Below, piece by piece: positions 15,104-61,227 of a DNA stretch of 64,000 bases. The stretch lies in NCBI GenBank assembly GCA_018816245.1, contig JAHIVW010000002.1:18314-82313 (forward strand), given 5' to 3'. This DNA comes from Nanobdellota archaeon. Its GTDB lineage: Archaea > Aenigmatarchaeota > Aenigmatarchaeia > QMZP01. Position 1 is the first letter of the stretch. Every line of letters begins with the position of its first letter. The translations under genes and the position numbers were made by a program. The notes under the pieces were generated by a model that was not told the origin of the DNA, made no database searches, and saw only the letters and a list, made by a program, of their open reading frames with translations.

Positions 15104-15169
15104 AGGAATCCCTTATTGCGCGACGCTTATATCCGAACAAATATATAGGGACATCCCAATTGGGGTGCA

Positions 15170-15241
15170 GGGCCGGTAGATCAATGGTAGATCGCTGCCT
15201 TCGCAAGGCAGAGGCTCCGGGTTCAAGTCCCGGCCGGTCCA
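15170..15241 (+). tRNA. tRNA-Ala (anticodon CGC)
   Basis: GGGCCGGTAGATCAATGGTAGATCG-CTGCC-TTCGCAA-GGCAG-AGG-CTCCGGGTTCAAGTCCCGG-CCGGTCC-A. The G3:U70 identity pair is present. TATA-like aaatatatagg lies ~26 nt upstream. Confidence 0.9.
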
Positions 15242-15242
15242 T

Positions 15243-15956: not shown

Positions 15957-15977
15957 ACGGGGAAACAAATACTCGCT

Positions 15978-19696: not shown

Positions 19697-19718
19697 AGGC
19701 TGATTGGTGACACCTGCT

Positions 19719-20021
19719 TTATAAGCGGGTCTGCGCTTGCTGCTTCTGGCGAAGTTGTGCTGCTTCCTCTGGCTTCAGTTTCAGGAGCTCTTTGATTTCT
19801 TCAAGAGTAATCTCTGTTTCCTTGGAGAGTCGTGCCCGCTCGATGCGGTTCAGATGTGATTCTTCAAGTGTCACAAGGTTTGTTGAAATCCCGTCGAGCC
19901 GCTTCAGTACCATCTGGCGGAGTGGCTGTTTCTTCATCAAAGCCTTTTCCCGTGCACGATCCCATTTCCTGCGAAGTTTGCGGATCTTTCGGTTCCACCC
20001 GAAAAGAAAATCAAGGATCAT
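19719..20021 (-). CDS. hypothetical basic coiled-coil protein
   Basis: 100 aa, K/R/E-rich and helical-looking. A TATA-like catttatgg lies ~28 nt upstream. Confidence 0.45.
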   Translation of the reverse strand: MILDFLFGWNRKIRKLRRKWDRAREKALMKKQPLRQMVLKRLDGISTNLVTLEESHLNRIERARLSKETEITLEEIKELLKLKPEEAAQLRQKQQAQTRL

Positions 20022-25447: not shown

Positions 25448-25462
25448 TATAACAGTGTTATT
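25448..25462. repeat. palindrome TATAACAGTGTTATt, copy 4
   Basis: Read directly from the sequence. Overlaps the TAA stop (25458-25460) of the convergent giant gene. Confidence 0.8.
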
Positions 25463-28400: not shown

Positions 28401-28727
28401 CTCCTCTGAAAAATTCAAGAGAATTGTTCCGAATGGGGAGACACGTGCCGCAAAGATCTTGCCTGTTCCTTGTAACTGAAAAAGGGTAATTGTCCCGTTT
28501 GTTGTGGTGACCTCACGTGTTTCGCCGACGGTATACCCAAGTGACAGAGCGAATTCCAACTGTTCCGCAAGATCGTTATCTGTTGCGATTCGGAATGCTA
28601 TGTCTGATTGCGTTAACATTGTTTGTGAAATGATCATTGGAGGCGAGTATGTGACATTCTGGGCAGCAGCGATTGTGGGAAGCAAAAGCAAGCCGAGCAA
28701 CAACAACCATTTCATTCTCCAGAACAC
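25458..28727 (-). CDS. giant secreted Cys-rich multidomain protein (MopE-like metal-binding motifs, DUF2341-like and discoidin-like regions)
   Basis: 1089 aa. Signal peptide ...LLLLPTIAAA|Q. Tandem Cys-rich repeats (DYPY[ST]C.G.CW.CN.GN). Three CxxxDxDCDG motifs (ETCNGIDDDLDGSIDEG, ETCNNVDDNCDGIVDN, ELCDGLDNDCDGYIDDE). WWDDHFSYRKEVTV...DIRFVKDGGELPYD is DUF2341-like. C-terminal F5/8-type-C-like block. Confidence 0.8.
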   Translation of the reverse strand: MFWRMKWLLLLGLLLLPTIAAAQNVTYSPPMIISQTMLTQSDIAFRIATDNDLAEQLEFALSLGYTVGETREVTTTNGTITLFQLQGTGKIFAARVSPFGTILLNFSEENSLTLFTKTGGMSFNLSDRTVHHSWGDFGKSGAGCDSGECFYLCAAWNIEQNSVYNDICGPVCTTCLESATVFYSPACVGCATCAAALVGWCSGSCLTDVCAWYPCFEDCNAKDGYYNSQWEYYCDGDQRWKHRHYIDFFCPTNVPGIIDPTTFCDSTIPYVDNTLVEVCQYGCDPTTNQCNGAVACYQDTDCGVDGWVNAPFCNGNDVWQVWRTYTCNNPGTQSASCASSDQQQLKQQCTSGSCSNGECGGSASCTNPDYPYSCQGACWMCNGGNDMYTLCCPQAGVQPQWCCPNNGPYCNTQTGACTNCGGDYPYTCGGTCWKCNAGNENNFLCCKPDGSTYCCPYGSVCDLENSGCSTLQPETCNGIDDDLDGSIDEGIPPEGCGTGLCAGGVQVCINGQWSSCSTVGNTQPETCNNVDDNCDGIVDNLASQSCGSDIGICHPGTQTCTNGVWGTCGGSGYVPPATELCDGLDNDCDGYIDDENVCGNYPSVTLDDPGPGDTVHGSQLVFSCSANDAQQLKNITLFTNVTGAYVALATLDTTQQEAVLQHATAPEGICDIVWNCQAYDPDNHEAWAPSPAVVRFVYTNSPPTTPRTLDCNNQACGGVYKNTIELACNGSDDPDGDELAYEIEGFFADPINSGSWWDDHFSYRKEVTVQGNGSGTTTVRVSLNDPDLLLHANVDKSDIRFVKDGGELPYDLRGNVAVVAVTLDSEGTSFYLYYGNVNTQTTETTLDEESFRIVHTFQNGIASTCRNGGQHCWDDMISHDWISLTGTGGASGDFATSGTDPRPLGSEYWTVDGSQHVGWVRLDLETVSRISALSQSVYNDSRTNTYNISVANSTDGPWLEVVPSAPRSQITTFDIPDVDVQHVLLFVTDMSAGSPMSEELEVWEIRVLESLLGTEETRVGKQWYPLGSHEQGSGANQPHVHWDITSLPSQRGVQVRCRASDGEGVSSVLTSSPFSIQGSFFAGRVDGYK

Positions 28728-32892: not shown

Positions 32893-33058
32893 CGCCGGCG
32901 GCAGGAGTCGAACCTACACGTCCTTTCGGACACCAGATATCCAGATGGTTGCTCTTCACGTCCGCCGTTATCCGAGTCAAGCCAAGCGATCATCGAGCCG
33001 AAGCCCTCGCCATATCTGATTCTCAAGTCTGGCGCGTTAGCCATTCCGCCACGCCGGC
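32893..33058 (-). tRNA. tRNA-Ser (anticodon TGA) with a ~83-nt intron at the canonical 37/38 position
   Basis: Exon 1 is 33058-33022 (GCCGGCG TG GCG GAATGGCTAA CGC G CCAGA CTTGAG). Exon 2 is 32938-32893 (A TCTGG + variable arm TGTCCGAAAGGACGT + GTAGGTTCGACTCCTGC + CGCCGGC + G73). The intron is 33021-32939. The exact junction is ambiguous because ATCTGG is duplicated. Confidence 0.75.
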
Positions 33059-35346: not shown

Positions 35347-35964
35347 TTATGCGTCGGATGCTGGCTCGCACTTCGCTGCAGAGACCGTAATGCTGTTTAG
35401 GAGGTCATACCACTTGTTCCAATCCCTGCTCGCATCTTCATCGAACGAGTATGATGTGAGGCCCGAACCAGGACCAATTTGTATATCAACAAGTGAAGCT
35501 GAAAGACAAATAGTTACAATATCATGACCAATAGGCAGCGTTTCATGCTGTATCCCCTGATTGGAACATTGGACAGGTGGTTGGTAATAGTTCGCAGTCT
35601 CGTCGATGCATCCAGCAGAACTGAGTGTTGCGGTCGTTGTGCTTCCTGATGAACCACCCTCCCCTTTCCTTGACGGGGTTGTGTGGGCTATCCCAGAATC
35701 TACGACGACGAAGCAGGTGGTTAGTCCGTTATAGGTAAACGAGGATATCGCGTATGATGCTGTCCTTGGGTTCAATCCATCATCGAAATCTACACAATGT
35801 CGTATAGACCTCTGGGTAGGTTGATCAGAAGGGACTGCCTGTTTCCCAGCAGTCACATCAAACCCAGCCAACCCAAACTGGAATGCAAGAAACAGGATCC
35901 CGACGACTGCTGCAAAAAGAACGAGAGAGACTGTACCTCTTGGTTCACGTTTCCGCGCTCTCAT
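35347..35964 (-). CDS. hypothetical exported protein with a possible class III (pilin-like) signal
   Basis: 205 aa. N-terminus MRARKREPRG|TVSLVLFAAVVGILFLAF resembles the RG|Q[VL]EF... N-termini at 60703 and 54465. Confidence 0.5.
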   Translation of the reverse strand: MRARKREPRGTVSLVLFAAVVGILFLAFQFGLAGFDVTAGKQAVPSDQPTQRSIRHCVDFDDGLNPRTASYAISSFTYNGLTTCFVVVDSGIAHTTPSRKGEGGSSGSTTTATLSSAGCIDETANYYQPPVQCSNQGIQHETLPIGHDIVTICLSASLVDIQIGPGSGLTSYSFDEDASRDWNKWYDLLNSITVSAAKCEPASDA

Positions 35965-41550: not shown

Positions 41551-42222
41551 CTATTTTTTGACAACAAGTCCTTTGGTGTCAATGAGCAGCGGATAGATAT
41601 CTTTTCCGTGGTTCGTTCGGCGCATCTTCCTGACTTGTAGTGTCCGTCCGGTTGCTTCTCCAGCACCAACATACGTGATCAGAATGACAGCATCGGCAAC
41701 ATATTCTTCCACACCAAACAATGATAGATGCTTTGTTCCTTCAGGAACCTCTGATGTCAGAATCGCTGTTATACCCTTTCTCCGTTTGATTGTGTTGATG
41801 ATGTTGATGAGTCGCCGACGAATCTCGGCTTTCGAATCCATTGTCATACCAAGCACGGTTGCAGAATCGATCACCAGTCGCTTGGCCTTCAAATCAGAGA
41901 TCTCATTTACAATTGTAGAGGAGAGATTCGATACCTGCGACGGATCATGATAGATGATTCGGAAGAGGTTTTTCTTCTCGTATTTTTCGAAGTCCCATCC
42001 AAAGGCCAACGCATCCCCTTTGATATCCTCGGGGCGCTCTTCAAGCGTGATAAAGAGACCACTCTCTCCATTCTGGACCCCTTCCCAAAGGAACTGGGCG
42101 CCGAAGAGTGTCTTGCCAGAACCTGTTCCTCCTGACATGAGAACAACAGAACCTTCGACAAATCCCCCACCGACAAGCGAGTCCAAGCCAGGAATGCCTG
42201 TCTTAATACGCTTCTGGAGCAT
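41551..42222 (-). CDS. KaiC/RadA-like RecA-superfamily ATPase (single domain), second paralog
   Basis: GIPGLDSLVGGGFVEGSVVLMSGGTGSGKT and LVIDSAT. Confidence 0.8.
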   Translation of the reverse strand: MLQKRIKTGIPGLDSLVGGGFVEGSVVLMSGGTGSGKTLFGAQFLWEGVQNGESGLFITLEERPEDIKGDALAFGWDFEKYEKKNLFRIIYHDPSQVSNLSSTIVNEISDLKAKRLVIDSATVLGMTMDSKAEIRRRLINIINTIKRRKGITAILTSEVPEGTKHLSLFGVEEYVADAVILITYVGAGEATGRTLQVRKMRRTNHGKDIYPLLIDTKGLVVKK

Positions 42223-48524: not shown

Positions 48525-48556
48525 CTCCCCGGTTCCCGGGGAACCTTCTTTTCTTT
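48525..48556 (+). terminator. GC hairpin plus T-run after the stalk operon
   Basis: CCCCGG-ttc-CCGGGG (or GGTTCC-cgg-GGAACC) followed by ttcttttcttt. The TAA of the convergent giant gene (48555-48557) lies in the T-run. Confidence 0.55.
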
Positions 48557-51500
48557 AGGTTTTTGTTGTTGCAGGGACGCTCTTGTGATCATTACTCATG
48601 TGACTGGTGAAGAAATCATAAAGTGGGCCCCTCCCAGACGATGATCCGGATGTTCCGGACGACCCAGATGCCACTGATGTTGCGGCTTTTGCAGTGGCCT
48701 TTGTGTTTCCGACAAGACCGCCGCCAGCTTCCCCACCACCAAAGAAGTCAACAACCGTGCCCCCGAAATCACCGATCGGCTGCGTAAACCAGGCCGTGAC
48801 CCCGAACAGGCAGATCACGCCGGTTCCTATTGCGGCAATGTTCTCCCAATGATCGAAGATGCTGTCGTCTTCCTCGTCGTCATCGTCTTCGTTCTTCCCT
48901 TCGAGTTCGTCGATTTCCTTCTCGATATCCTCGGCCTCGTCCTTGTGATCGGCGATTGCGGGAAGCGCCCAGGTCGCGTAGCACGCGGCAATGGTCAGGG
49001 CAGCGCCGAAGAGCGTGCACCAGTTCTTTCCGGCGACGCTAGTTGCAGTGGACGTTCCTGTAGCGGCGCCGGTTGCACCTGCATCTTGGAAGGAGAGTAT
49101 TTGTTGAGGTTCAAGCGGTGCAAGATTAGGAATTAAACCTCCTTGATTATCCCCAATATTTGGAACGGTCCCATCTGGGAGGCTTCCTGGATTTCCTGGC
49201 GGTTTTGCACTAAAAGGAATACTCGGATCCTCAGCAGGTGGAATACTTGGCGCAGCCTTCCCAGCCGCTTCATCAGCAGGCGACGCCTTCCCGGTTGTCT
49301 TCTCCTTGTAACACGCAATCCCGAGTCCAACAACGATAATCCCTGCGATAATCAGTTGCGTTGTCAGACAATTCGCTGCGTGTTCCTCTTCTGCGAGATC
49401 ATCTTCCAGCTCTTCCTTTTCTTCAAGAAGCGAATTCAGGACATCTTCGCCGTCCCGGAAGAGGGTTACGTCCTGCTTGGCCGTCACCGCAACGAGCTCG
49501 CTCTTTTGGGGAAGCTTCAGTTCCATGTCAATCTGCAAGGTCGTGTCAATGTCCCCGACATCATCTTCCGTGGTTGACACGCCTTCAAGTGGCTTTGGAG
49601 AAATATGACAGATGTACTTCTCGCCATCCGGTTCACACCCAATGAACGTCTCTTTCCCGAAGAGTTTCGCAGTTACGCTGTCGATGGTCGTTCCTGCAGG
49701 CACCTTGGTCAGCTTCACCGAAATGTCAAACCCTTTCAGGAAAATACACATTGCCCCCCGTTCCTGGACCTTGCACTCCGGCTTCTCAGGATCAACGCTG
49801 AGAATGGCAAGACTAATTTTGGACTGGGGAACGCACACACTATCAAGATCATCCCCACCCGGGACACAGGAGTACTCCGGTCCGAAGGATGGATTGAGTT
49901 CACAGGCACAGTCGAGACACGAATTCTTTGCAGACTCACCCAGATCCGCCTGGCATACCCCATCATGTTCAAGATACGAGAACGAAATGTCAAACCTCGG
50001 AAGATCCAGAGCAAGATCCTTGATCTGCTCGCCTGCGCCGTCCGGGAACTGGGCAATCACGAAAATAGTCGGCTCAAGGGACGCAGTTAAGGCACCCTCA
50101 TCAAAACTGGCCAGATCATGATAATTGGAAATTTGAGGAACCGTAAGCGTGCACGTTAGGTGATTGGCATTCAATAGGTCACAGGTAACGGAACAAGGGA
50201 CATCCTCATCAAAGAAGCAGCCAATTCCACTGAGAATCACCCCAGTCGGTGGTTTCACGAGATGGAATTCGACGAGTGCGTCATTCTCCTGCGTCGCAAC
50301 AAAGGCTGTGTCAGAAACTGCATCCAGATCCAGCTTCACTACATCAAGAACGCGGCAGATGTCGTTTGGTCCTGGTGTCCCTGTTGAATCGCAGTACTCT
50401 CCTGCTCCGCAGCCGGTATCGATGCAACAAATCTCACCAAGGGATGCAATGCCGTCACCGCAGTAGTTTGTTCCAATCCCGGTTGCAAAGCTGAGGTCAA
50501 GCGTCTCCCCGACGGTGACACCACTACACGTTGTGACCGTTGTCGGGAAGCTCAAGGTGGTGTAGTGGGTGTAGCTCTTTGTTGGAGCACCATTCACGAT
50601 CGTGAACGGCACCGTGCAGGTAAGTGGCAAGACTCCATTGACGACTGTTCCTTTCGTACATGTTGCACTGCATGTGGACTGGCAGGCACTCCCTTCACTC
50701 TCCGTGCAACTCGAGGTGCAGGTTGGTGCCCCGACGCTGTAACCGCCAGGAATATTATCAAGTTCAATGCTTGTTGTGACCTCAACACTCCCGTCTGCTG
50801 CGGTTCCGCTCACCCCGGTTGGGTTTGTTGTAATGAGGTGAATATTCGATCCTGTTGGCAGTGTTGTACAGACACCGGGGTCATCAGGATTCGAGGGATT
50901 CACAAAGGTACACACCGTTCCTGAGGCACAAGCATCAGAACAATCCTTGGCACAATTCTGAACATTCTCTCCGAGGCCGCTTTCGCAGACCGTGTTCCCA
51001 CAGGTCCATGACCCAACCGTGATCTGCGGGAAATTCGTGGAAATGGTTTTCGTGAGCGTTCCCTGCTTGGTCGCATCACTATACACCATCACAAAGGTCA
51101 TGGTATTTGGTGACAGAACATAATTCTCGCCAGAACAGGCAGGATCAGCAGGCACCACAACAGCACACTGGTAGGTATCATTACTCACCGGCGTGCAGGC
51201 AGCCATCGTTTCCGGGCCCCCGCCAAGCGAATAACGCGCTTGACTGAGTGATGCACCAGGAAGCATGTTGACAACCTTGAATTGGAGCTGTAGAGTATTC
51301 GCTACCTGGCAATTGCTGATTGCGGTGTTCGGTGTCCCGGCATTCACCAGTGCCATGGTTTCCTGATAACATGAAAAGGTCCCGTCGTCGAGGACGCACA
51401 CCATCTGATTCGGGCATCCGCCACAGTCAATGCAAGCAGTGATGGGTGTTTCTCCGGATTCGCAAATCCCATTCCCAATTGAGCCAGAAGCCGCAGTATA

Positions 51501-52337
51501 TTTCTCAAGCTGGATTCCAGAACCAATTGCTGTTGCGAGCTTCGGAAAGAGGAATCCCCACTTGGTGTCAAGGCCGGTGAACAGGTTCGTCCCAACAACG
51601 AGCGGCACGAATCCTGCAGGCGGTGCATCAGCCTTCAAAACATAGAGCTTGTCAGCGTTCGGTGCTTGGATGCTTGTCACCCAATCAGCACTGACCGGAA
51701 CTGCCTTGTTCTGTTCAATATAATGTTTGATGTCGTTCACGACATCAACACTCTTCGCGTTGACCACAAGTTCGTTAATTGCCGTTGATTTGTGTTCGAA
51801 TATGTTTGTTCCTGTTCGGACAACCTGGTCCCAGTACGCGGCAACGAGCTGATCACCAGCCCGGTTCAGGCGCGTCACAATGAGAAAGCGCGCCACTTGC
51901 GGGTTGCTTGAAGAAGGGGGCGGCGACAGATGATTGGCAACTTGAGACCATGTTGTTGTGTGCGTTGCAACCCCGCCGCTGGCAATCACGGTTGCAAAGG
52001 ACGGAGTACTCGAACCAATACAATCCGTTGGTGTTGCTGCGTTCTTACATGGGATAATGTATGCGGTGTCAAGCGTAAAGGTTGTTCCGGAAATCATCAT
52101 CGACACTTGTGGATCAGTTCCCGGCGTCACGGTTATCACACGGTCTGCTTGTTCCGGAAGATACACTTGCTGATCAGGAAACGCTGGTGTCCCCAAATTC
52201 ACAATCTTCACGTTGGTTGTGTGGAGTGCCGAGACAACGCTGATACTCATGACAAGATAGACCGCTGCTGCCACACTCGCTAACACAACCATTGCTCGAA
52301 GATTCATCCTAGCACGCTCCTGTAATCGCTGCATCAC
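48555..52337 (-). CDS. giant Cys-rich membrane-anchored surface protein, type B (B2)
   Basis: 1260 aa. Signal/TM MNLRAMVVLASVAAAVYLVMSISVVSA. Four Cys modules (GNGICESGETPITACIDCGGC, TCGNTVCESGLGENVQNCAKDC, YCGDGIASLGEICCIDTGCGAGEYC, DGVCQADLGESAKNSCLDCAC). An acidic linker, then several C-terminal TM helices and a D/E run. The in-frame ATG 52307 is 1 nt after the upstream stop, so that may be the true start. Confidence 0.8.
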   Translation of the reverse strand: MMQRLQERARMNLRAMVVLASVAAAVYLVMSISVVSALHTTNVKIVNLGTPAFPDQQVYLPEQADRVITVTPGTDPQVSMMISGTTFTLDTAYIIPCKNAATPTDCIGSSTPSFATVIASGGVATHTTTWSQVANHLSPPPSSSNPQVARFLIVTRLNRAGDQLVAAYWDQVVRTGTNIFEHKSTAINELVVNAKSVDVVNDIKHYIEQNKAVPVSADWVTSIQAPNADKLYVLKADAPPAGFVPLVVGTNLFTGLDTKWGFLFPKLATAIGSGIQLEKYTAASGSIGNGICESGETPITACIDCGGCPNQMVCVLDDGTFSCYQETMALVNAGTPNTAISNCQVANTLQLQFKVVNMLPGASLSQARYSLGGGPETMAACTPVSNDTYQCAVVVPADPACSGENYVLSPNTMTFVMVYSDATKQGTLTKTISTNFPQITVGSWTCGNTVCESGLGENVQNCAKDCSDACASGTVCTFVNPSNPDDPGVCTTLPTGSNIHLITTNPTGVSGTAADGSVEVTTSIELDNIPGGYSVGAPTCTSSCTESEGSACQSTCSATCTKGTVVNGVLPLTCTVPFTIVNGAPTKSYTHYTTLSFPTTVTTCSGVTVGETLDLSFATGIGTNYCGDGIASLGEICCIDTGCGAGEYCDSTGTPGPNDICRVLDVVKLDLDAVSDTAFVATQENDALVEFHLVKPPTGVILSGIGCFFDEDVPCSVTCDLLNANHLTCTLTVPQISNYHDLASFDEGALTASLEPTIFVIAQFPDGAGEQIKDLALDLPRFDISFSYLEHDGVCQADLGESAKNSCLDCACELNPSFGPEYSCVPGGDDLDSVCVPQSKISLAILSVDPEKPECKVQERGAMCIFLKGFDISVKLTKVPAGTTIDSVTAKLFGKETFIGCEPDGEKYICHISPKPLEGVSTTEDDVGDIDTTLQIDMELKLPQKSELVAVTAKQDVTLFRDGEDVLNSLLEEKEELEDDLAEEEHAANCLTTQLIIAGIIVVGLGIACYKEKTTGKASPADEAAGKAAPSIPPAEDPSIPFSAKPPGNPGSLPDGTVPNIGDNQGGLIPNLAPLEPQQILSFQDAGATGAATGTSTATSVAGKNWCTLFGAALTIAACYATWALPAIADHKDEAEDIEKEIDELEGKNEDDDDEEDDSIFDHWENIAAIGTGVICLFGVTAWFTQPIGDFGGTVVDFFGGGEAGGGLVGNTKATAKAATSVASGSSGTSGSSSGRGPLYDFFTSHMSNDHKSVPATTKT

Positions 52338-54465
52338 ATGAGGAACTGATCATTGCTTTGACATTCTCAGGGGAACAGGTACTCGCAAAGGCGCCGGCAA
52401 CCTGTTGCGCCGTGAGGCAACCAGTTCCCTGCAGCATTGTTGCGATCGCTTGCAGATCGCTGCATGTACAGACTTGATTGAAATGATAAATGGTTGAAGC
52501 ATACGGCCCCCCAACGCGGAAGGTATCCATCCCACAGCTGTTCTTCAGGTCCATGGTTGCCTGCTGTTTGCTTGCTGTTGTTGTTCCTCCAGGAACAGGA
52601 AGTGACACCGCAAGCGGATCAGGGGTCGTCGGGACTGCCCCAGTGATCTGGAAGCCCGAGACAGGCTCCAGACCAAACGGCGACTCGGCTGAGAGGAAGT
52701 TCCCCTCGACAGTATACGTTCCGCTGACGAGTGTATCAAGCGGAGAACCACCGATTCCTGGAACTAAATGAAGGCTTGAAGGAACCGTAATCGAGCTGGC
52801 ATACTCGATACAGCTATTCACACAATCAGTGCATGTCGGATCAGTGACTGCTGCATCCCCATTCTCCGCGACAGCAACCTTGCACGCCGCGCAGGTTGGG
52901 GTGGGGTTATCATAACATCCTGATAGGTCAGTATTCAGGAAGGAATGGATCGTTTCTCCTGCTGTCAGCTTCACACTTACTGGTCCGTCAGGGACCACGG
53001 ACGTGCAGGTCGTGTATGGTGTTCCCGTTGCGACCGTCACCTCCCGGAAGGACATGGTATGAGGAACATTCACTCCAATCGTGACATCATAGCCGTTTAC
53101 GAGCTCTGCTGTAGCAACGGTTTGACTCAGGACATTGTGATCCGGTTCATAGACATGAAGGGTATCGCTTCCCGTACAGGCAACTGGTCCTGTCAGGACA
53201 CCATTTGTGTCGGTCATCCCGGAGAAGCAATCCCCGTAGATGACTGCTGCACCTGGTACTGGTGTCCCTTCGTTGTCCCGCACCCGCACGGTTCCTGTGC
53301 AGAGCAGATCAGGACAGTGTGCTGATACATCAAGTGGTGTCGCACTGTCACAACTCGCGACCTTCATCTCCTCAACAGAGACAAATCCAGCGAATCGGAA
53401 GGCATTCCCCGTGAACTCGTCTTCAACTTCAATGATGTAGGGATAGGTGAATGAGGGAGCAAAGAGGAAGGAGCTGTGGCAAATCGGCAGCGCCAAGCCT
53501 AGGATCGCCAGCGGCGGATAGTTCAGCAGCTGCTTGTTCGCATACGCGACCATGGGGGCGCTTGCGGTGAAATCAAGCCCATCAGGGAGTCGCTGTTGAA
53601 TTGTGAGATCATGATAGGAGACCCCATTAACTGTGGTAATGTCGAAGACCATTTGTTTATCGTCCTCCTTGGGGATATCCACGAACCAGTAGGTGTTCGC
53701 AAGGACGTACTCGACCACATCACTGAGCGCTTCACCGAGATCCTCGGGGGACCGGGTGAATCCTGTCCCGCACTCGTAAATCATCCCGCCGACCGGGATT
53801 CTCGAAAATCCGTCATCAGCATCTTTGACGAGGTAGAGCGAGGTAATTGTGTTGTGATCGAACTGCCGGGTGTTTGCGAAGGACGTTGCTACATCCTGAG
53901 CAAAGGAAATAATTCGGCCCAATGAGGTCGGCGTCATTGCCTGATACACAGGATTCGCTGTTGTTCCCTTAATTTTTGTTGGGATTGTTGCCGTTGCTTC
54001 GACCCTGCTGTCGAAGATTGTGATCTCAATAGAGAGTTTTGAAAGATCAAAAGTAACGTCCTTCCCCGGAAGCGGGTTGATGTTCATGTTTTCTGTAAGG
54101 TACTTCTTCAAGGCAAAAGCAAAATCAGTCTTGATCTGGTTCATGCTCGGGGCGAGATTGGTGTCGCACACCTGCCAGTAGGGGACGCCGTCACCAAGAT
54201 AGGTCGTGAATGCCGGGATCGTGCCGTCTTCATTCCCGAGCTGTTCGAGGGAAAGATAGCCGCCGTGACGTTCCATCTCGTCCACGACATGGATAATTCC
54301 ATCAGCGAGGATACCGTTCACACTGTTATGAACAAGCTGTTCGTCGCTTGAAAGGGCAGCAGGACCAATTGACGGGAGATAGTCCTGATATGCAATTGCA
54401 ATGACAACGAGTGCAACAAGAACAATACCGACCAGTGCAACGAATTCGACCTGCCCCCGTCGCAT
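52309..54465 (-). CDS. large exported protein with a class III (type IV pilin-like) signal, type A (A2)
   Basis: 718 aa. MRRG|QVEFVALVGIVLVALVVIAIA. Blocks shared with 58589..60703: HGGYLSL, GDGVPYWQVC, GFTRSP, a CarboxypepD_reg-like CTGTVRVRDNEGTPVPGAAVIYG, VPHTMSFREV and C-terminal CTCSDLQAIATML..TGCLTAQQ. Confidence 0.8.
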   Translation of the reverse strand: MRRGQVEFVALVGIVLVALVVIAIAYQDYLPSIGPAALSSDEQLVHNSVNGILADGIIHVVDEMERHGGYLSLEQLGNEDGTIPAFTTYLGDGVPYWQVCDTNLAPSMNQIKTDFAFALKKYLTENMNINPLPGKDVTFDLSKLSIEITIFDSRVEATATIPTKIKGTTANPVYQAMTPTSLGRIISFAQDVATSFANTRQFDHNTITSLYLVKDADDGFSRIPVGGMIYECGTGFTRSPEDLGEALSDVVEYVLANTYWFVDIPKEDDKQMVFDITTVNGVSYHDLTIQQRLPDGLDFTASAPMVAYANKQLLNYPPLAILGLALPICHSSFLFAPSFTYPYIIEVEDEFTGNAFRFAGFVSVEEMKVASCDSATPLDVSAHCPDLLCTGTVRVRDNEGTPVPGAAVIYGDCFSGMTDTNGVLTGPVACTGSDTLHVYEPDHNVLSQTVATAELVNGYDVTIGVNVPHTMSFREVTVATGTPYTTCTSVVPDGPVSVKLTAGETIHSFLNTDLSGCYDNPTPTCAACKVAVAENGDAAVTDPTCTDCVNSCIEYASSITVPSSLHLVPGIGGSPLDTLVSGTYTVEGNFLSAESPFGLEPVSGFQITGAVPTTPDPLAVSLPVPGGTTTASKQQATMDLKNSCGMDTFRVGGPYASTIYHFNQVCTCSDLQAIATMLQGTGCLTAQQVAGAFASTCSPENVKAMISSSCDAAITGAC

Positions 54466-54486
54466 GGTATTATTTTCTATTCAAGA

Positions 54487-54497
54487 GTATATATAAC
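54487..54497 (-). promoter_or_regulatory. TATA-like box for A2
   Basis: Minus strand gttatatatac, centred ~27 nt upstream of ATG 54465 (leaderless geometry). Overlaps a half-site TATAACAGC of the palindrome family. Confidence 0.45.
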
Positions 54498-54524
54498 AGC
54501 AAAAAGGCCACCCCTGGTTCCTCT

Positions 54525-55139
54525 TTAAATGAGTGATTCACTCTGTGCTATGCTTCCAGTTCCCTGGTTGCTCGTTGTTGGACCAGACGTTACTGGTGTT
54601 GACCCTGTCCTTTGACAGATTTCCCATGCCTGTCCAGCACATGAAACTTCACATTGGTAGCACTCCACTTCTGACGGAAGAGGGAAAAAGATGGTCCATG
54701 GAAAATGCTCTCCCCAGTATTGCCGACGTTGCGCATCTGTCCGGTGTTCCTTCCATTGCCGGCATCGTGCATCTGAAAATGCACCCGCACCCGCACCATA
54801 ATCCGCAGTCATGCAATTTGGGTCATCCCAACATCGGTTGGGAGGAGGTGCCATGCTAATCAATGCATCGGCGCATGTTGCTTCTGCATCTGCAACAGCA
54901 ATTCGTCTCGCGTCGCTTGCGGTTCGAGCACAAACCGAATCACCATGACCGTCAGCAGGGCCCAATTGCGTGATATACCACGTGCACTCGCCACCGGTAC
55001 TCCCGCCCGCCTGCTGCCCGCTCGGTGCCAATAACATCGGCAGTCTCGGGTCAAGCGCAACCGAACCAACCATGAGCGCAAGAAAAACAACAAGAACAAA
55101 ATACGCCAGATATTTTTGTTGCACGATCTTCACCTTCAT
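54525..55139 (-). CDS. membrane-anchored Cys-rich protein, unknown function
   Basis: 204 aa. N-terminal anchor YLAYFVLVVFLALMVGSVAL and 12 Cys in the ectodomain. Confidence 0.55.
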   Translation of the reverse strand: MKVKIVQQKYLAYFVLVVFLALMVGSVALDPRLPMLLAPSGQQAGGSTGGECTWYITQLGPADGHGDSVCARTASDARRIAVADAEATCADALISMAPPPNRCWDDPNCMTADYGAGAGAFSDARCRQWKEHRTDAQRRQYWGEHFPWTIFFPLPSEVECYQCEVSCAGQAWEICQRTGSTPVTSGPTTSNQGTGSIAQSESLI

Positions 55140-55194
55140 GGGTTCCCTGCCGTTTGGAATCGAGATGCCCTACCTCTCTTTTTTCTTTCCTTTC

Positions 55195-55527
55195 TTATAT
55201 AGGCCAAGTTGCCGGAATCTTACTCGCGAGTCCAGGTTCTGCAAGGATATCATACCCGATGCCCACACTCTTTCCCTTCTTGCTTACATTATAATATTTT
55301 CCGAAACCAAGAAGCAGCCCCCCTTGCGTTCCGTAGCCTTCGATTGGGCTGTTTTCCAGCAGCCCGATGGCATTGGACGCATCCTGATAGGCCTTGTTGA
55401 TTGCCTTGATTGTTTCAATGAACGGATGTGTCCCAGCGGCACGTGCCCCGGAAATTCCTGCCACAAGAAGAAGCAACACAATAACTATCATGACCCCGTA
55501 CACCGTTCCATAGTTCTTCATGCTCAT
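55195..55527 (-). CDS. small pilin-sized exported protein
   Basis: 110 aa. MSMKNYG|TVYGVMIVIVLLLLVAGI N-terminus. The start overlaps the B1 stop (ATGA, 55524-55527). Confidence 0.55.
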   Translation of the reverse strand: MSMKNYGTVYGVMIVIVLLLLVAGISGARAAGTHPFIETIKAINKAYQDASNAIGLLENSPIEGYGTQGGLLLGFGKYYNVSKKGKSVGIGYDILAEPGLASKIPATWPI

Positions 55528-58500
55528 AACGCCAGACTCCCGACATTGAGGACAAGCCCAACAACTGGGTTAAAGTATCCTACAATCGCACCAATGAATG
55601 CAAGGACATTCCCTTGCATCGCTGCTGAGGCTAATCCTCCAATTAATGCAAGAACGCAGCAAGGAGTACAAAACCAGTAACAGAGGATAGACATGATTGC
55701 TGTAATGATTTGGAAAACCATGTTTGTTGCTCCCCCTTCCTCCCCCTGATCCTCGGTATCACCAGTTTCCTCCAACAAGTCGTTTGCCAACTCGTCCCCT
55801 GACTTGATATCGTCCTCAATCCCCTTGATCTGCAGTGCGTGAGTAGCCTCCATGGTGACGAGCGCCGCGCCAGTAACAATCTCATCACTCGTCGGGATGA
55901 GCGCAGTCACAGCAAACCGGAGCGGTTCCGTCTGGCCCCCGAGCTTTGCCTTCTCAAGCGGTGGCAACCCGAGAATACAACTCAACGAATTCGAGCTGTC
56001 ACCGGCAGCACAATTCGCTTTGTGCTCATTCCCCTGGAACGTATAGGAAACATCCTGAACCTGGAGCGCTGTTGCCAAGCCGACAATTTTCAAATCAACT
56101 TTGATGCTCTTGAGGAAGTGGCACGTCTTGTCAGACATGCTCAAGGTGCATTTCACGGGTTCCGGCGTCACATGATAGACAATGAGTCCGATCAACCCTT
56201 CCTTGACGCAGAGACTCTGCGGATCGCTGCCGCCCGGCACACAAAGGAAGCCTTCTCCAAAGGCAGCGTCCTCAATACAGGAACAATCAAGGCAACAGGT
56301 GGCGGCACTCTCCCCGGTCCCGCACACCCCGTCACCACAAACGGGAACAGCGCCAACGAGCAGTTCCGGTGTTGCTGTTGAGAGGGTCACGGCAACATTC
56401 TGCGGTCCGTCATGATAGGTCGCGTGAACATCAAGATCAGCAAAGACACGATATGCTTCTTGGTCACGATCGAAAATGGGACTTGTTGGATCATCAGGAA
56501 ACACCGGCAGCGTCAAGGTGCAGGAAAGAATGTTTCCCTGCAGGAAGCAATCATCCAGCGAACAGACAAGCTCAGTATCCTGGATTCCGCAGTCTGTACG
56601 CTCAATGGTGAGACTCGTCGGGGCTTCCTTAATTTTTCCAATTATCGTCGCCTTATTCTGGATCGAACTGTCTTCAAACATCCCGGGAGAAACACTGAGC
56701 AGATACAACGAAAGCTCTGGATCTGGCTGGCAGGTATCTGCAAGTGTTGCATACTCGTTCACCGCTTCGCAGTATTCTCCTGTTCCGCAAGGGCAGTCAT
56801 AGCAGCAGCTCCCCCTTGACTCCGTCGGATCGCAGAGACCATTGCCGCAGGTCACCTGTCCAAAACCGACAGGGGGCACGGCGAGGCTGATGAGCTTGTT
56901 CGTTGTTCCGGTTGCCGTTGTGTAGGAAAATGGAAGCGCAAGCGTTTGGCTCACAGTGTAGCCGTTCCCGGATTGGTAATTCAGAATCTTGAGATTCAAT
57001 GCACACGTTAACGACGTGGCGTTCGCGCCGAGCGAACAGGTTCCGGTGCAGCTTGCCGTGCAACTCCCGTCTGTTGTCTGGCACGCTGCAGCACAACCTG
57101 CAACGCCGAGCGTCAAGGCCTCGGGCGGATTGAGGACACTTGCCGAGACCGTTAACCCTGTCCCGGCCACAGGATCGTGAGTCAGTAATGATTGTGGTGT
57201 CACGGTGACTGCAACAAGGTTCGATGTCCCAAACGGCTGGACACACTGCCCGTTGGTTGTTCCCTGTAATTGGCATTCGAACCCGCCCGTGCAACCGCAA
57301 TCAAGGCAGCAGGTTGCATCCTCACCAGTGTCACAGATTCCATTTCCACACACCCCGGTTTGGATTGTTGGGATCGCGGTCAGCAAGGAGGTTGTGTATT
57401 GTTTTCCGGATCCTGTCTGATGGGTAAAGGTCGCGGTGAGGGTGTTCCCGGAAATAACTGTTCCTGACCCGCATGATGCAGGCGGCGTCACAACCAACGT
57501 GCATCGGTACAACTCATTCCCTTGAAACACGCAGACAGGTTGTTGTGGTATCCCACCAAGCACCGCGGAAAACGAGGGCGTGCTCGCTCCGACAGGAAGA
57601 TTCTTCAGTCGAACAGTAATGGGCAGCGAGGAAGTGCTGTCACAGGTGGGGAGAACAAGCGTTGTAGGAGAAACATACTCCAGTTCATAGTCAATAAGCG
57701 AACAGGTTTCTGCATACGTGCAATAGGAACCAGAATCACAGGGACAGTCACTGCAACAATTCCCTTTCTCACCGTTTCCACACTGATTGTCGCCGCACAC
57801 TTCTCCTGAACTGCTTTGCACAACAGCAACCGGTGCATTCCGGAATCCGCTGACAAACGGAAACAAGAGAACATAATTCGATCCTGTGCTCACAATCTCA
57901 TTCCCCACAACCTGCGACACAAGGTTGTACGGCGGTGTATTCGAGAGCAGGGTCGTGATCGAGGAAGCGCTCTGAATGACGATCTTGCTGACACGCGCAG
58001 GATCCAAGGGAAGCTGCCGATAGGAGGTAATGTAGGAAGAGAGCTGCGTTGCCGCGTCCACAGACGCGGCATGGACAGCAACGGCATCGACATCAAGAAG
58101 AGTTTGATGGGTAAACTGGACAGACGCGCTTGTTCGGACAACCTTATGGATCTTCGTTGCCCACATTGTTGTTCCGTCGGGATGTTGGAGCCGCGCTCCC
58201 ACAAGGATGTACGCTGTCTGTGGGTAACTGCCTGTTGTATCGGCAACCAGGCTCCACGACTTGGTTACGGTAGCAATCCCGTCAATCAGCGGCATTGGTT
58301 CGAATGATTGGAGGGTACAGGTTGCTGGATCAGGATCCCCCTTGCACCACCAGACATAGGCAGCAATGAGCGGGTACGCTGGGGTTCCTGCTGCAGTTAC
58401 ATTGACACGAAGATCATAACTGAATGCAGTAACCTTTGTTTCTTTCGATGTCACAGAAACCAGCGGCTGGTATGTTGGTGTGAGATCAGGGCCAGAGCTG

Positions 58501-58607
58501 ACAATCCTGATTTGCATGGCGCTTGCAACCGGCATCAGCAGCACAAGACAGATGCTAATCATCGTTGCGCTGAGGAGGACCGATTTCATCATGAGCTCAC
58601 CCCACAC
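55524..58607 (-). CDS. giant Cys-rich membrane-anchored surface protein, type B (B1)
   Basis: 1027 aa. Signal peptide MMKSVLLSATMISICLVLLMPVASA. Four modules (VCGDNQCGNGEKGNCCSDCPC, VCGNGICDTGEDATCCLDCGC, TCGNGLCDPTESRGSCCYDCPC, VCGDGVCGTGESAATCCLDCSC). An acidic linker, then C-terminal TM helices. The likely true start is ATG 58592, which overlaps the A1 TGA. Confidence 0.8.
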   Translation of the reverse strand: MWGELMMKSVLLSATMISICLVLLMPVASAMQIRIVSSGPDLTPTYQPLVSVTSKETKVTAFSYDLRVNVTAAGTPAYPLIAAYVWWCKGDPDPATCTLQSFEPMPLIDGIATVTKSWSLVADTTGSYPQTAYILVGARLQHPDGTTMWATKIHKVVRTSASVQFTHQTLLDVDAVAVHAASVDAATQLSSYITSYRQLPLDPARVSKIVIQSASSITTLLSNTPPYNLVSQVVGNEIVSTGSNYVLLFPFVSGFRNAPVAVVQSSSGEVCGDNQCGNGEKGNCCSDCPCDSGSYCTYAETCSLIDYELEYVSPTTLVLPTCDSTSSLPITVRLKNLPVGASTPSFSAVLGGIPQQPVCVFQGNELYRCTLVVTPPASCGSGTVISGNTLTATFTHQTGSGKQYTTSLLTAIPTIQTGVCGNGICDTGEDATCCLDCGCTGGFECQLQGTTNGQCVQPFGTSNLVAVTVTPQSLLTHDPVAGTGLTVSASVLNPPEALTLGVAGCAAACQTTDGSCTASCTGTCSLGANATSLTCALNLKILNYQSGNGYTVSQTLALPFSYTTATGTTNKLISLAVPPVGFGQVTCGNGLCDPTESRGSCCYDCPCGTGEYCEAVNEYATLADTCQPDPELSLYLLSVSPGMFEDSSIQNKATIIGKIKEAPTSLTIERTDCGIQDTELVCSLDDCFLQGNILSCTLTLPVFPDDPTSPIFDRDQEAYRVFADLDVHATYHDGPQNVAVTLSTATPELLVGAVPVCGDGVCGTGESAATCCLDCSCIEDAAFGEGFLCVPGGSDPQSLCVKEGLIGLIVYHVTPEPVKCTLSMSDKTCHFLKSIKVDLKIVGLATALQVQDVSYTFQGNEHKANCAAGDSSNSLSCILGLPPLEKAKLGGQTEPLRFAVTALIPTSDEIVTGAALVTMEATHALQIKGIEDDIKSGDELANDLLEETGDTEDQGEEGGATNMVFQIITAIMSILCYWFCTPCCVLALIGGLASAAMQGNVLAFIGAIVGYFNPVVGLVLNVGSLAL

Positions 58608-60703
58608 GACCCTACGAACTGGGCGTCACATAATGTAATAATCGTGTTGATACCATCATTTAGTGTACAGCCACTCTCCGGGATGGAGGCCGCCTGGCTC
58701 GCGGTCAGACACCCTGTTGTTGCGAGCTCTGTTGCAATGGCATGCAGGTCGCTGCAGGTGCATGCCTGGCCGAACGAGAATGTCCAGGTTGGATAAGGAA
58801 CGCCGATCTTGAACGGCTTGATTGCACACACGTTTGTTGCCTTGACTGCAAGATCGTGCAGTTCCTGTTCTGTCAACTGCGGTACTGCAGTCGCAGCAAG
58901 CGGCACCGTGACCGTCAAGGCATCAGGTGTCGCGGGAATCGTCCCTTCGGTGATGAAGCCACCAAGGACAGAGGTTGCATACTTGATCGCCGTTGCTTCA
59001 ACAGGGAACGTCCCGGTCGGGAGATTGAAATTGAACTTCCCCGAAGGATACGTGACGCTCGGCAGTGCTGTAATGCACGCATCGATGCACGCATCGCATG
59101 CAGCCTTGATCTGTTCTATGGCACTCCCCAATACATCTGCATTGGCACAGGTGACACACGCCGGGTTTTCAGTGTAACAATCAGTTTCTGTTTCCAAGTT
59201 AAAGATAGTCATTGCTGAACTCCCCTCCCCACCGATGCGCACGATCACTGGATCGTCTCCTGTATTGACATGGCAGGTGGTGTAGCTTCCTTTCGGTTCA
59301 ATTGCAACGGTCCGGAAATGAACGGTATGCGGAACCGGCGACTGAAGGGTAACGAGAATTGGTTGCGCAGGATCCGCGTAGGAAATGTACGGCAAGTACG
59401 CATCTGCGAAGACGTCGATTTGTTGCGTGCCGCATGATGCTGTTCCTGTTGCTGTTCCGTGAACATTCGTGGTTGCGGTGAAACATTCGCCGAGGGTCAC
59501 CAGCGCGCCGATCACCGGATTCCCGAGATGATCAGTGACAGACACATTCACCGGGCACACCGGTTCGCCGCATGCTGTTGACACGACCAAGGAGACCGGC
59601 TCGGAACACGGCGCTGTTTCCATGTCCTTCACGTTCACGAATCCTGCAATGTGGTAGGGATAGTTTGAGAGTTTGTCAAAGATGCGCACAACGAAGGGGT
59701 AGGTAACAGCATAGCGGATGTTATATACTCCTGTACATCGGGCAAACACGTAGATATCAGCATCCATGAGAATCTGGCTGTTGGAGCCCGAGAAGCCCTG
59801 CGTTGTCTTGAAAGAGAAATCATCAGAATAGAACAGCTGCGGCTCCAGCTCAGAGAACGTTTTCCCGAGCACTGTCGGAATCGCGAAGCTCCGCGCTTCC
59901 GAGGAATCAGGTGTAGAAGAACCCCACCACACAAGATGGGATAAGACGTAGTTCGCTGCAAGCGTCAGGCCTGCGGAAACCTGTTTCGGTGTTCGCGTAA
60001 AGCCGTCGCCACAATCATTCATGACACCGCCCGTTGGCAGCATCGGGTGGCCATCATCCATGTCCGGGGAAAAGAGGATCGCGTACACCGTGAACCAGTC
60101 AAGCCAGCGCATTGTCGAGAACTCACCGGCAAGCGCCTGAGAAAATTGAACCAACCGGCCGAATTCCGTTGGGACGCTCAGCGAATAGCGCTCTGCTGCC
60201 TCGTACTCTTGGAGACTGATCGGCACGATGATCTCAAGATCGATCTTGTTGTCGAGAATGTTCGCATCCACCATAATCTTTGTTGTATCGACAACGACCG
60301 TTTTTCCCGGAACCGTGATTTCACTGCTGTGCTCGATTAGATAGTTTTGGATACCACGTTCATAGTCCCTTGTGATATCAGCGAGAGAACGGCTCAGGTC
60401 GTTTTGGCACACCTGCCAGTAAGGGACACCCTCTCCCTCGAAAATGGTGTGGGTTGGAACAATTGCCCCTGGTCCGATCTTGTCAAGTGTCAGGTAGCCG
60501 CCATGGAGCTCCATGAGCTGGAGCGTCTCGTCTGCGCCGTTCCGGATGAGCTGCTCGGTCACATCACGCAGCAGGCTTTCTTCAGTCCCAAGAACCGACG
60601 GCAGACTATCCGGGGTCGTCGGCTGCCGGACCATGATCGCGACGATGACTACCACAAGGAAAATCAACCCGAAAATGACAATGAATTCCAGTTGCCCCCG
60701 CAT
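58589..60703 (-). CDS. large exported protein with a class III (type IV pilin-like) signal, type A (A1)
   Basis: 704 aa. MRG|QLEFIVIFGLIFLVVVIVAIMV. HGGYLTL, GEGVPYWQVC, GFTRTP, a CarboxypepD_reg-like VCPVNVSVTDHLGNPVIGALVTLG, VPHTVHFRTV and C-terminal CTCSDLHAIATEL..TGCLTASQ. Confidence 0.8.
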   Translation of the reverse strand: MRGQLEFIVIFGLIFLVVVIVAIMVRQPTTPDSLPSVLGTEESLLRDVTEQLIRNGADETLQLMELHGGYLTLDKIGPGAIVPTHTIFEGEGVPYWQVCQNDLSRSLADITRDYERGIQNYLIEHSSEITVPGKTVVVDTTKIMVDANILDNKIDLEIIVPISLQEYEAAERYSLSVPTEFGRLVQFSQALAGEFSTMRWLDWFTVYAILFSPDMDDGHPMLPTGGVMNDCGDGFTRTPKQVSAGLTLAANYVLSHLVWWGSSTPDSSEARSFAIPTVLGKTFSELEPQLFYSDDFSFKTTQGFSGSNSQILMDADIYVFARCTGVYNIRYAVTYPFVVRIFDKLSNYPYHIAGFVNVKDMETAPCSEPVSLVVSTACGEPVCPVNVSVTDHLGNPVIGALVTLGECFTATTNVHGTATGTASCGTQQIDVFADAYLPYISYADPAQPILVTLQSPVPHTVHFRTVAIEPKGSYTTCHVNTGDDPVIVRIGGEGSSAMTIFNLETETDCYTENPACVTCANADVLGSAIEQIKAACDACIDACITALPSVTYPSGKFNFNLPTGTFPVEATAIKYATSVLGGFITEGTIPATPDALTVTVPLAATAVPQLTEQELHDLAVKATNVCAIKPFKIGVPYPTWTFSFGQACTCSDLHAIATELATTGCLTASQAASIPESGCTLNDGINTIITLCDAQFVGSCGVSS

Positions 60704-60726: not shown

Positions 60727-60735
60727 TATTATAAG
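60727..60735 (-). promoter_or_regulatory. TATA-like box for the A1-B1 operon
   Basis: Minus strand cttataata, centred ~28 nt upstream of ATG 60703. Confidence 0.5.
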
Positions 60736-60780: not shown

Positions 60781-61227
60781 ATGCGAAAAGAGCGGAGCTT
60801 TGCCCTGTTCCTGGTTGCTTTGATGCTGCTCTCAGCAGCAGGATTTGCCGTGAGTTTTACTCCAGTAACACAATCTTCCAGCGAAGAGCCGGAGATTATC
60901 TTACCACCGCCGATTGTTGAACGGGCACTGACAACCGAAGAAGTGCTCTCAGCGCTTCGCACCGGCCGGCTTATCTATACCTATACCACACCAGAAGCCT
61001 GCGAATCCTGTGAGGCGATGAAGACAACCTTATCCGACTTTGTCACCACCTACCCCGCTTTCGCAATCATCGTTTTTCTGGAAGGAGAGCAGGAAGAATT
61101 GACTGTGCTCCTCCCTTCAGGCGAGTTCGTGCCAATCGAGACACCAATTGATGTGGACGAATTACTGGAAACCTATTGCGAAAACAGTTATATCAAACCA
61201 AAGGAATGTCTCTTGCTGCAGATCTAA
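60781..61227 (+). CDS. membrane-anchored thioredoxin-fold-like protein with a CxxC motif (tentative)
   Basis: Start at ATG 60781 (MRKERSFALFLVALMLLSAAGFAV anchor). LIYTYTTPEACESCEAMKTTLSDFV fits a beta-strand, CxxC, helix layout. The fold is assigned by eye only. Confidence 0.4.
   Translation: MRKERSFALFLVALMLLSAAGFAVSFTPVTQSSSEEPEIILPPPIVERALTTEEVLSALRTGRLIYTYTTPEACESCEAMKTTLSDFVTTYPAFAIIVFLEGEQEELTVLLPSGEFVPIETPIDVDELLETYCENSYIKPKECLLLQI

Follow-up and report, generated by a model that had tools for sequence, protein, structure and literature searches.

How ultrasmall archaea of the DPANN group, most of which are obligate episymbionts, build their envelope and attach to a host is the question on which the locus described here bears. 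We analysed a 64-kb window (the whole stretch of DNA under study) of contig JAHIVW010000002.1 from a Nanobdellota archaeon, in which the interval 48555-60703 consists of six consecutive minus-strand open reading frames (ORFs), exactly at the positions that an earlier note on this DNA had given. Two genes, here called A and B, are each present twice in this interval: A encodes a protein with a prepilin-type signal, and B a giant, Cys-rich protein predicted to be membrane-anchored. Our analysis leads us to propose, with about an even chance of being right, that A and B form a translationally coupled, disulfide-rich two-subunit surface module of DPANN archaea, with adhesion or host contact as its likely role. 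Because the pair is widespread, strictly adjacent, coupled and unannotated, and would bring together prepilin export and a giant, disulfide-rich protein anchored in the membrane, it is a strong candidate for a cell-surface or host-contact complex, and it offers concrete, testable candidate genes for the corresponding machinery of DPANN archaea. In a very small genome a single copy costs about 5-6 kb, and the two copies here together occupy 12 kb. The attachment organelle of Nanobdellota YN1 has been described by cryo-electron tomography, and its proteins were stated as unknown (PMC11420986).

Two coupled gene pairs in tandem

A1 (58589-60703, minus strand, like all genes of the block) encodes an exported protein of 704 aa with 22 Cys, whose residues 1-25 (60629-60703) comprise a prepilin-type (class III) signal and an N-terminal hydrophobic helix, M-R-G↓Q-L-E-F-IVIFGLIFLVVVIVAIMV, where the arrow marks the predicted cleavage site. 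B1 (55524-58592) has 1022 aa counted from the ATG at 58592, 57 Cys and a Sec signal; an alternative GTG start would extend it to 55524-58607 and 1027 aa. Two small ORFs with an N-terminal hydrophobic segment follow, one of 110 aa (55195-55527) and one of 204 aa with 10 Cys (54525-55139), and then the second pair, A2 (52309-54465, 718 aa, 22 Cys, signal MRRG↓QVEF…) and B2 (48555-52307, 1250 aa from the ATG at 52307, 51 Cys; 1260 aa from an alternative GTG start at 52337). The 110-aa and 204-aa ORFs are singletons for which homologs were not found, and neither Pfam nor NCBIfam gave a match; comparison of the 204-aa ORF with the Cys-rich ORF upstream of the A gene in a related locus (L001) showed no relation. 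Five of the six block proteins are on record (MBU0952888-92), all named 'hypothetical protein', and the B2 sequence as read here has no record. The GC content of the block, 0.51-0.54, is the same as that of the remainder of the window, which points to a native composition.

At the A1/B1 junction the stop codon TGA (58591-58589) is overlapped by an ATG (58592-58590, giving ATGA), and a second ATG comes directly after. Since the first ATG overlaps the A1 stop, the start of B1 is most likely at 58592, in agreement with the NCBI annotation (MBU0952891, 1022 aa). The ATGATGA overlap that the earlier note had claimed here is present, but its span is 58592-58586, one base off the 58587-58593 given there. 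The two other junctions are as previously described: the TAG of A2 (52311-52309) is separated by a 1-nt gap from the in-frame ATG at 52307, a gap equal to that in the orthologous pair of L001, and an ATGA at 55527-55524 holds both the stop of B1 and the start of the 110-aa ORF. A TATA-like box, TTATAATA (60727-60734, minus strand), lies 23 nt upstream of the A1 ATG and is, by its sequence, a putative archaeal promoter; another, TTATATATA (54488-54496, minus strand), precedes the A2 ATG by 22 nt, with a T-run between it and the end of the 204-aa ORF. The presence of such a box before each A gene suggests two separate transcription units, A1-B1-(110-aa ORF) and A2-B2. A scan for sigma-70 promoters and terminators gave the same counts as shuffled sequences, and the sigma-70 model is not applicable to archaea. 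Beyond B2, a GC-rich hairpin with a T-run (48526-48545), inside the 33-nt gap between B2 and the convergent rpl12, is a possible bidirectional terminator.

The two pairs are paralogous far beyond chance, with 31% identity end to end between A1 and A2 (E 5e-119) and 27% over about 940 aa between B1 and B2 (E 5e-70). The shared motifs from which this had been proposed are visible in the alignments, namely HGGYL[TS]L, G[ED]GVPYWQVC, GFTR[TS]P, VPHT..FR, YTTC and CTCSDL.AIAT in A, and CLDC.C…CVPGG.D..S.CV and C.FLK in B. The module was duplicated in tandem long ago, and its copies have diverged to about 30% identity. The closest relatives of A2 and B2 are the A and B genes of L001, a short contig of a metagenome-assembled genome (MAG) in which the two genes are likewise 1 nt apart; at about 44-46% identity to A2 and 53% to B2, they are probably their orthologs.

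Adjacency of A and B across loci

Word-indexed protein searches found only one or two relatives each for A1, B1 and a B profile, and the extreme rarity that this implied was overturned for A by an exhaustive HMMER search of the A profile against 1.84 billion representatives (clusters at 50% identity), which returned 485 clusters at E ≤ 1e-3, of which 177 reach E ≤ 1e-30. Scans of genome contigs with degenerate patterns gave no match, the patterns being probably too narrow. Those relatives of A that carry a name are recorded as 'hypothetical protein', except for one longer member called 'VWA domain-containing protein [Candidatus Aenigmarchaeota archaeon]', and the taxon labels known among them are DPANN (Nanoarchaeota, Aenigmarchaeota). 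Judged by these sequence relatives, the pair is a member of a large DPANN family and no curiosity of one genome.

A scan of metagenome loci was made with a 14-sequence alignment as query. Independent loci that extend past A number 14 (L007, a duplicate of L004, is not counted), and in all of them a B homolog lies directly beside A, with the order A then B in 12, A-A-B in one and B then A in one; the stop and start codons of the two genes usually overlap. The overlap measures 11 nt in L002, an Aenigmarchaeota-type contig (A of 611 aa, hhalign 99.9%, E 8.5e-38; B of 1259 aa), and 4 nt by the collection's gene calls in L003, a contig from the Joint Genome Institute (JGI) metagenomes whose B is truncated. 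The B of L004, also a JGI metagenome contig, was matched by hhalign (E 6.5e-95), and that of L005 (MAG GCA_015520105.1) by BLASTP (E 4e-75); B directly follows A in the metagenome contigs L009-L013 and L015. On L016, a 148-kb JGI contig, the neighbour counted as B is a 1115-aa gene that overlaps and follows A; it was itself not compared with B. The A-A-B order belongs to L006, an Aenigmarchaeota contig with tandem A paralogs of 1102 aa (carrying a C-terminal VWA domain) and 642 aa, then B (7500-16171); an 833-aa gene precedes them and overlaps the first A start, and comparison showed it to be unrelated to A. The reversed order belongs to L017, a Logan contig (8-nt gap; hhalign 100%, E 1.2e-78), where the region 5087-12142 also holds a LAGLIDADG homing-endonuclease gene (379 aa) directly beside alaS.

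Such neighbours might be held together merely by shared regulation or by common needs of export and folding, A and B being independent proteins that form no complex. This we regard as very improbable. It is true that the whole syntenic block around the pair is conserved, so that adjacency could be partly historical. Pairwise identities of A and B also co-vary over nine pairs (Pearson 0.91, Spearman 0.70), but this is only weakly informative because any co-inherited neighbours are expected to diverge together. Against independence, stop and start codons still overlap, or nearly so, at 24-30% pairwise identity, distant Aenigmarchaeota-type pairs are still adjacent at 24-26%, adjacency has outlasted both the order swap in L017 and moves out of the ribosomal neighbourhood in L002 and L006, and the duplication in the window copied A and B jointly. 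The suggestion of the earlier note that A and B work as a pair, for which it had named a survey of adjacency in related genomes as a check, is thus strongly supported by the 14 loci and by the order swap in one lineage.

In the window, the block is flanked by rpl1/rpl10/rpl12, convergent to B2, and by alaS upstream of A1. A position between alaS and convergent rpl12-rpl10-rpl1 is shared by L004, L005, L009, L010, L014, L016 and L017, each locus showing the alaS and/or the rpl side depending on the reach of its sequence (L003, L008 and L013 show the alaS end only). Where the sequence extends beyond rpl1, the operon continues with rpl11, Spt5, a polyprenyl synthase and a KaiC-like gene; alaS is usually accompanied by a gene that we call orf167 and sometimes by purC/purE. 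This syntenic position is kept although the A proteins are only 29-38% identical. Because the housekeeping block running from alaS through A-B to rpl12/rpl10/rpl1 recurs across loci, A-B is, as judged from gene order, a vertically inherited core-genome feature in this lineage and no accessory or mobile island.

A long form of the block, seen in the window (42290-63806) and in L004, L005, L016 and L017, reads thiolase/HMG-CoA synthase … orf167/alaS, (purC/purE), A, B, rpl12, rpl10, rpl1, x, rpl11, Spt5, a small gene, polyprenyl synthase and the KaiC-like gene, and the orf167/alaS segment is inverted in the window relative to these loci. Other genes of the window include pheS/pheT, ribosomal proteins, thiolase/HMG-CoA synthase, polyprenyl synthase, CDP-archaeol synthase and RFC. 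It also encodes two stand-alone KaiC-family ATPases (9900-10634, minus strand, 244 aa; 41551-42222, minus strand, 223 aa), and a KaiC-like gene lies beside the polyprenyl synthase in the conserved block of L005 as well.

Signal, fold and layout of the two proteins

Members of the A family are mostly 600-800 aa long, and most matches span profile positions of about 1-480; it is roughly this region that the family conserves, while the C-terminal region varies. Among 151 sampled members, 129 begin with a short basic leader, [G/A/S]-Q-x-[E/S/G/T] and then about 20 hydrophobic residues, the exact [K/R][G/A]Q.E being present in 108; the G/A of the motif stands at median position 5, and the motif-less remainder mostly look N-terminally truncated. 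The M, R, G, Q and E columns are invariant in A1 (MRG↓QLEFIVIFGLIFLVVVIVAIMV), A2 and the relative P0001, which read M-R-(x)-G-Q-x-E followed by a hydrophobic helix. Q4 and E6 (A1 numbering) exceed 90% conservation in an alignment of 100 sequences, where G68-G69, W96, R199, C231-G232, C323, P336, D343 and several later Cys are conserved too. Archaeal class III signal peptides carry K/R at -2 and G/A at -1, and Gln at +1 is said to be typical of EppA-type pilins. With its short basic leader, G/A at -1 and hydrophobic stretch of about 20 residues, A bears the pilin signal that had been read in A1 and A2, and bears it as a motif across the family. Since mere membrane anchoring needs no conserved G/A-Q-x-E, this motif is read most economically as a site at which a prepilin peptidase would act.

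One could therefore ask whether A is a modular pilin, minor or at the tip, of an Epd- or 'system 1'-like type IV filament, extracted from the membrane and built in by machinery encoded elsewhere. B would then not be a stoichiometric partner at the tip but a membrane accessory of the filament, for priming or docking or as an envelope-spanning collar. We consider this unlikely. The near-invariant [K/R][G/A]↓Q-x-E with its hydrophobic helix is what such a pilin would carry, and the conserved Glu near the mature N-terminus of A parallels the Glu5 that is conserved in bacterial pilins, although in the A family it sits at +3 (more than 90% conserved). In L002 (4141-8117), A-B closes an operon that begins with a run of six small genes. 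Class III-like N-termini (KG↓AIELS…, KG↓QSEIMEY…, KA↓QSSML…) are seen in at least three of them, and the +3 Glu recurs in two of these small pilin-like proteins; none has a match to a Pfam or NCBIfam pilin family. Moreover, the bimodular pilin PilB of S. sanguinis (PMC8179133) offers a parallel to the VWA domain on some A members (2 of 30 in a Pfam scan), and a type IV filament 'system 1' has been reported in DPANN archaea (bioRxiv 10.64898/2026.04.22.720090). In most loci, however, A is the sole class III-like gene and stands in a housekeeping setting that has no pilus gene within ±10 kb; neither an ATPase and platform protein nor other pilins are encoded nearby, L002 alone having small pilin-like genes. 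Pfam annotation of the flanks of L004, L005, L016 and L017 revealed no pilus ATPase, platform protein or A24 peptidase, and tip pilins are not known to be strictly coupled to a polytopic membrane protein. Archaea commonly have stand-alone pilin genes, however, and the lack of pilus genes nearby therefore only weakens the case for A as a pilin.

The structure of A1 bears on the same point. Its AlphaFold2 model, built from the 100-sequence alignment, is confident (mean predicted local distance difference test, pLDDT, 91.5; predicted template-modelling score, pTM, 0.80) and shows a hydrophobic helix (residues 2-25), a long helix (36-66) leading into an α/β core of about 325 aa that ends near residue 360, a transthyretin/CarboxypepD_reg-like β-sandwich (382-452), a second β-sandwich with a Cys-rich helical insert (459-607) and a small Cys-rich C-terminal domain (612-698). 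The CarboxypepD_reg-like sandwich had been noticed before; its sequence score (PF13620, 26.1 bits) is below the Pfam cut-off of 32.3, but the structure supports it, as residues of about 382-452 superpose on the N-terminal extension (NTE) of SusC, 9hfj (target template-modelling score, TM-score, 0.82, root-mean-square deviation 1.9 Å), and also on carboxypeptidase D/M/N domains. In contrast to this sandwich, the conserved α/β core has no fold match in PDB or BFVD (Foldseek, with the whole-chain model as query). The other A1 matches there are strings of sandwiches, from SlaB, RrgB and SpaC to phage baseplate and tail proteins, at a TM-score of about 0.1.

Sequence searches likewise place neither protein in a named family, as had been expected from a reading of the sequence. 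Pfam gave nothing above threshold for the six ORFs of the block, NCBIfam had no match for A or B, and profile searches of PDB sequences had none beyond the small β-sandwich of A. DUF2341 and the PilY1 β-propeller were detected neither in A1, A2, B1 and B2 (Pfam E ≤ 1) nor in 30 family members (E ≤ 0.001). On these searches A and B define two new protein families.

By sequence, B begins with a Sec-type signal (…VSA↓) and a conserved N-terminal domain of about 240 aa, continues with four CGxGxC…CCxDCxC knots alternating with β-rich (β-sandwich) segments, and ends in an acidic linker, 2-4 predicted transmembrane segments and variable tails. Homologs contain 51-62 Cys per protein, with 51-57 in B1/B2. 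About three transmembrane helices are predicted for B1, a hydropathy scan giving three partly overlapping segments; the C-terminal region of B2 is longer, with low-complexity and acidic loops separating the transmembrane segments, of which the hydropathy scan finds two and the eye a third. B would thus be a disulfide-stabilised stalk of knot and β-sandwich repeats, anchored to the membrane at its C-terminus. Pfam shows no PSI or TIG domain in it. The low-confidence model of B1 supports only the coarse picture of an all-β ectodomain followed by helices at the C-terminus, and in Foldseek plexins head its list, with immunoglobulin matches too, at a TM-score of about 0.1.

This layout raises the possibility that A and B form a two-component, S-layer-like envelope lattice with a structural role, in the manner of SlaA/SlaB of Sulfolobales, B being the anchored stalk and A a second, helix-anchored layer. 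The two-gene arrangement, presumably co-transcribed, resembles slaAB, and the Sec signal, string of β-sandwiches and C-terminal anchor of B resemble SlaB. Core-genome behaviour and a constant position by alaS and rpl1/10/12 at 29-38% A identity would suit a lattice, and a large, Cys-rich, C-terminally anchored protein of some archaeal type IV pilus loci has been called 'S-layer-like' (PMC4858521). SlaB (8qox_B) is among the Foldseek matches of A1, but with a TM-score of 0.10-0.15 that reflects generic β-sandwiches, and PDB searches by sequence and by profile linked neither A nor B to a solved S-layer protein. Furthermore, each A or B protein has only 0-2 N-glycosylation sequons (N-X-S/T), unlike typical archaeal S-layer glycoproteins, codon usage of A/B is unremarkable, a lattice protein would not usually be present in two diverged copies or vary at its C-terminal module, to which some members add VWA, and S-layer proteins have no known need of a class III signal. 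We therefore hold this structural alternative to be quite improbable.

Together A and B carry about 75-80 Cys, and a conserved neighbour fits the need for extracytoplasmic disulfide formation that this would create. The gene orf167 (60781-61227, plus strand) encodes a small protein anchored in the membrane at its N-terminus, with an invariant CxxC and another conserved pair of Cys, and is conserved by alaS and A-B in six other loci (L004, L009, L010, L011, L012 and L014). Its profile matched in PDB almost only thioredoxins, DsbA and related thiol-disulfide oxidoreductases, although weakly (best E 0.0068), and Thioredoxin is the top Pfam family for two of seven members. It is thus a plausible candidate for an extracytoplasmic disulfide-forming helper of the Cys-rich pair.

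Elsewhere in the window, another large Cys-rich surface protein (25458-28727, minus strand; secreted, 1089 aa, 71 Cys) carries metal-binding motifs of the MopE type (30.5 bits in Pfam), and BLASTP showed it to be no relative of B. A 301-aa lamin-tail-domain protein (5113-6018, plus strand; 17 Cys) is likely a glycoprotein because of its 16 N-X-S/T sequons, and differs in this from A and B. A 568-aa protein (22920-24626, plus strand) contains CarboxypepD_reg. The only other window ORF with a class III-like N-terminus, …PRG↓TVSLVLFAAVVGILFL, encodes 205 aa (35347-35964, minus strand) and has no family match. Among RNA genes, Rfam reports a 166-nt tRNA, probably intron-containing, at 32893-33058 (minus strand), which ARAGORN misses, and ARAGORN reports a 93-nt tRNA-Ile(tat) at 19687-19779 (plus strand), which Rfam does not.

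A proposed surface module and its known counterparts

The surface module that we propose would be assembled as follows. A prepilin peptidase encoded elsewhere would cut A after the G/A of [K/R]-[G/A]↓Q-x-E, leaving a hydrophobic N-terminal helix with the conserved Glu at +3. This helix would hold a 70-kDa ectodomain made of the α/β core, two β-sandwiches and the variable Cys-rich C-terminal module, accompanied in some relatives by a VWA domain. B would be exported by Sec, form a long, disulfide-stabilised stalk of its N-terminal domain and four Cys-knot/β-sandwich repeats, and be fixed in the membrane of the cell itself through 2-4 C-terminal transmembrane helices. Because the start of B overlaps or abuts the stop of A, the two are probably made together and would assemble into a heteromer on the outer side of the membrane, with the variable distal module of A as the end that would bind a ligand or partner and B as the anchoring stalk. 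The most likely role would be surface adhesion or cell-cell (host) contact. Established by the analysis are the structure and paralogy of the genes, the size of the family and its N-terminal motif, the synteny and strict adjacency, and the way A is built of domains; signal cleavage in A, the physical complex, its surface location and its function are what we infer.

Several results weigh against this proposal. As the earlier note had stated, the window contains no pilus machinery: a Pfam scan of 37 ORFs in the 64 kb found no pilus ATPase, platform protein or prepilin peptidase, and a screen of all window ORFs of at least 100 aa for transmembrane segments and Walker A motifs gave no further candidate. 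A 243-aa ORF (17237-17968) with five transmembrane segments by hydropathy was considered as a peptidase and rejected, having no significant Pfam match and, on reading, no GxGD. Nor does the native contig encode such machinery over the 10 kb that lie upstream of the window (74 kb together with it), and as no peptidase, ATPase or platform gene lies in either region, the processing of A is putative. In the A1 model a low-confidence, Pro-rich linker (27-30) interrupts the helices, whereas classic pilins have a continuous α1, and no type IV pilin is found among the PDB and BFVD fold matches of the whole chain. The B1 model is poor and unreliable (pLDDT 49.7, from a 4-sequence alignment), and a codon-adaptation proxy gave no expression signal for A/B. 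A position amid housekeeping genes, together with the conserved architecture, suits a structural role in the envelope no less than a role in adhesion.

A bolder version of the proposal may also be considered, although we find it improbable as it stands: A-B would be the core of a DPANN-specific host-contact apparatus, in which A, a 70-kDa prepilin-processed subunit with an α/β core not seen before, is delivered by a type IV filament pathway, and B, a plexin-like stalk, couples A to the membrane of the symbiont. If this were true, the tandem copies A1B1 and A2B2 would give two contact specificities. The resemblance to the ectodomains of plexins (PSI/IPT; PDB 5l5k, 5l56) lies in small Cys knots that alternate with β-sandwiches before a membrane anchor; with a B1 model of low confidence (pLDDT 49.7) and a TM-score of about 0.1, we take it as a likeness in architecture that does not imply homology.

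Full-text searches of the literature found no description of the A-B pair, and the recent surveys that report 'system 1' in DPANN archaea do not describe it either. The SlaA/SlaB proteins (PDB 8qox) share with A-B the arrangement as adjacent genes, presumably co-expressed in A-B as well, and, for SlaB and B, a β-sandwich stalk with a C-terminal anchor; they differ in showing no sequence or profile similarity, and A in having a prepilin-type signal, a helix of its own and few sequons. In the bindosome of Sulfolobus, class III signals are carried by substrate-binding proteins of the surface that form no filament. It thus provides a precedent for class III signals that direct large globular proteins to a surface assembly other than a classical pilus, but it consists of solute-binding proteins of ABC transporters with Bas genes dedicated to assembly, and A has no match to a solute-binding-protein fold.

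Large tip minor pilins are represented by CofB and TcpB, and to our knowledge no modular pilin strictly coupled to a membrane-anchored giant has been described. As a concept, the modular type IV pilins, such as PilB of S. sanguinis with its vWA domain (PMC8179133), are closest to A. Common to both are a class III leader, a hydrophobic helix with a Glu and large grafted modules, as well as a conserved N-terminal part and a variable distal part, with VWA in some members of the A family. A differs from them by its Glu at +3 and Gln at +1, by a core of about 325 aa without a pilin fold match, and by being encoded mostly away from pilus machinery and strictly coupled to the anchored giant B. As a gene arrangement, the closest that has been described is that of Makarova et al. 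2016 (PMC4858521), who found in type IV pilus loci of Thermoproteales (clade 4G) two large proteins rich in conserved Cys, one with a C-terminal transmembrane segment, termed 'S-layer-like', and the other with a signal peptide, termed 'adhesin or minor pilin'. The two-part logic is the same as in A-B, likened here by description and not by sequence; the Thermoproteales pair stands in loci with an ATPase and a platform protein, and both lineage and context differ. Thus, what would be new in the DPANN pair is a surface system with a class III signal, a core domain whose fold is unmatched in PDB and BFVD, and an unprecedented obligate partner.

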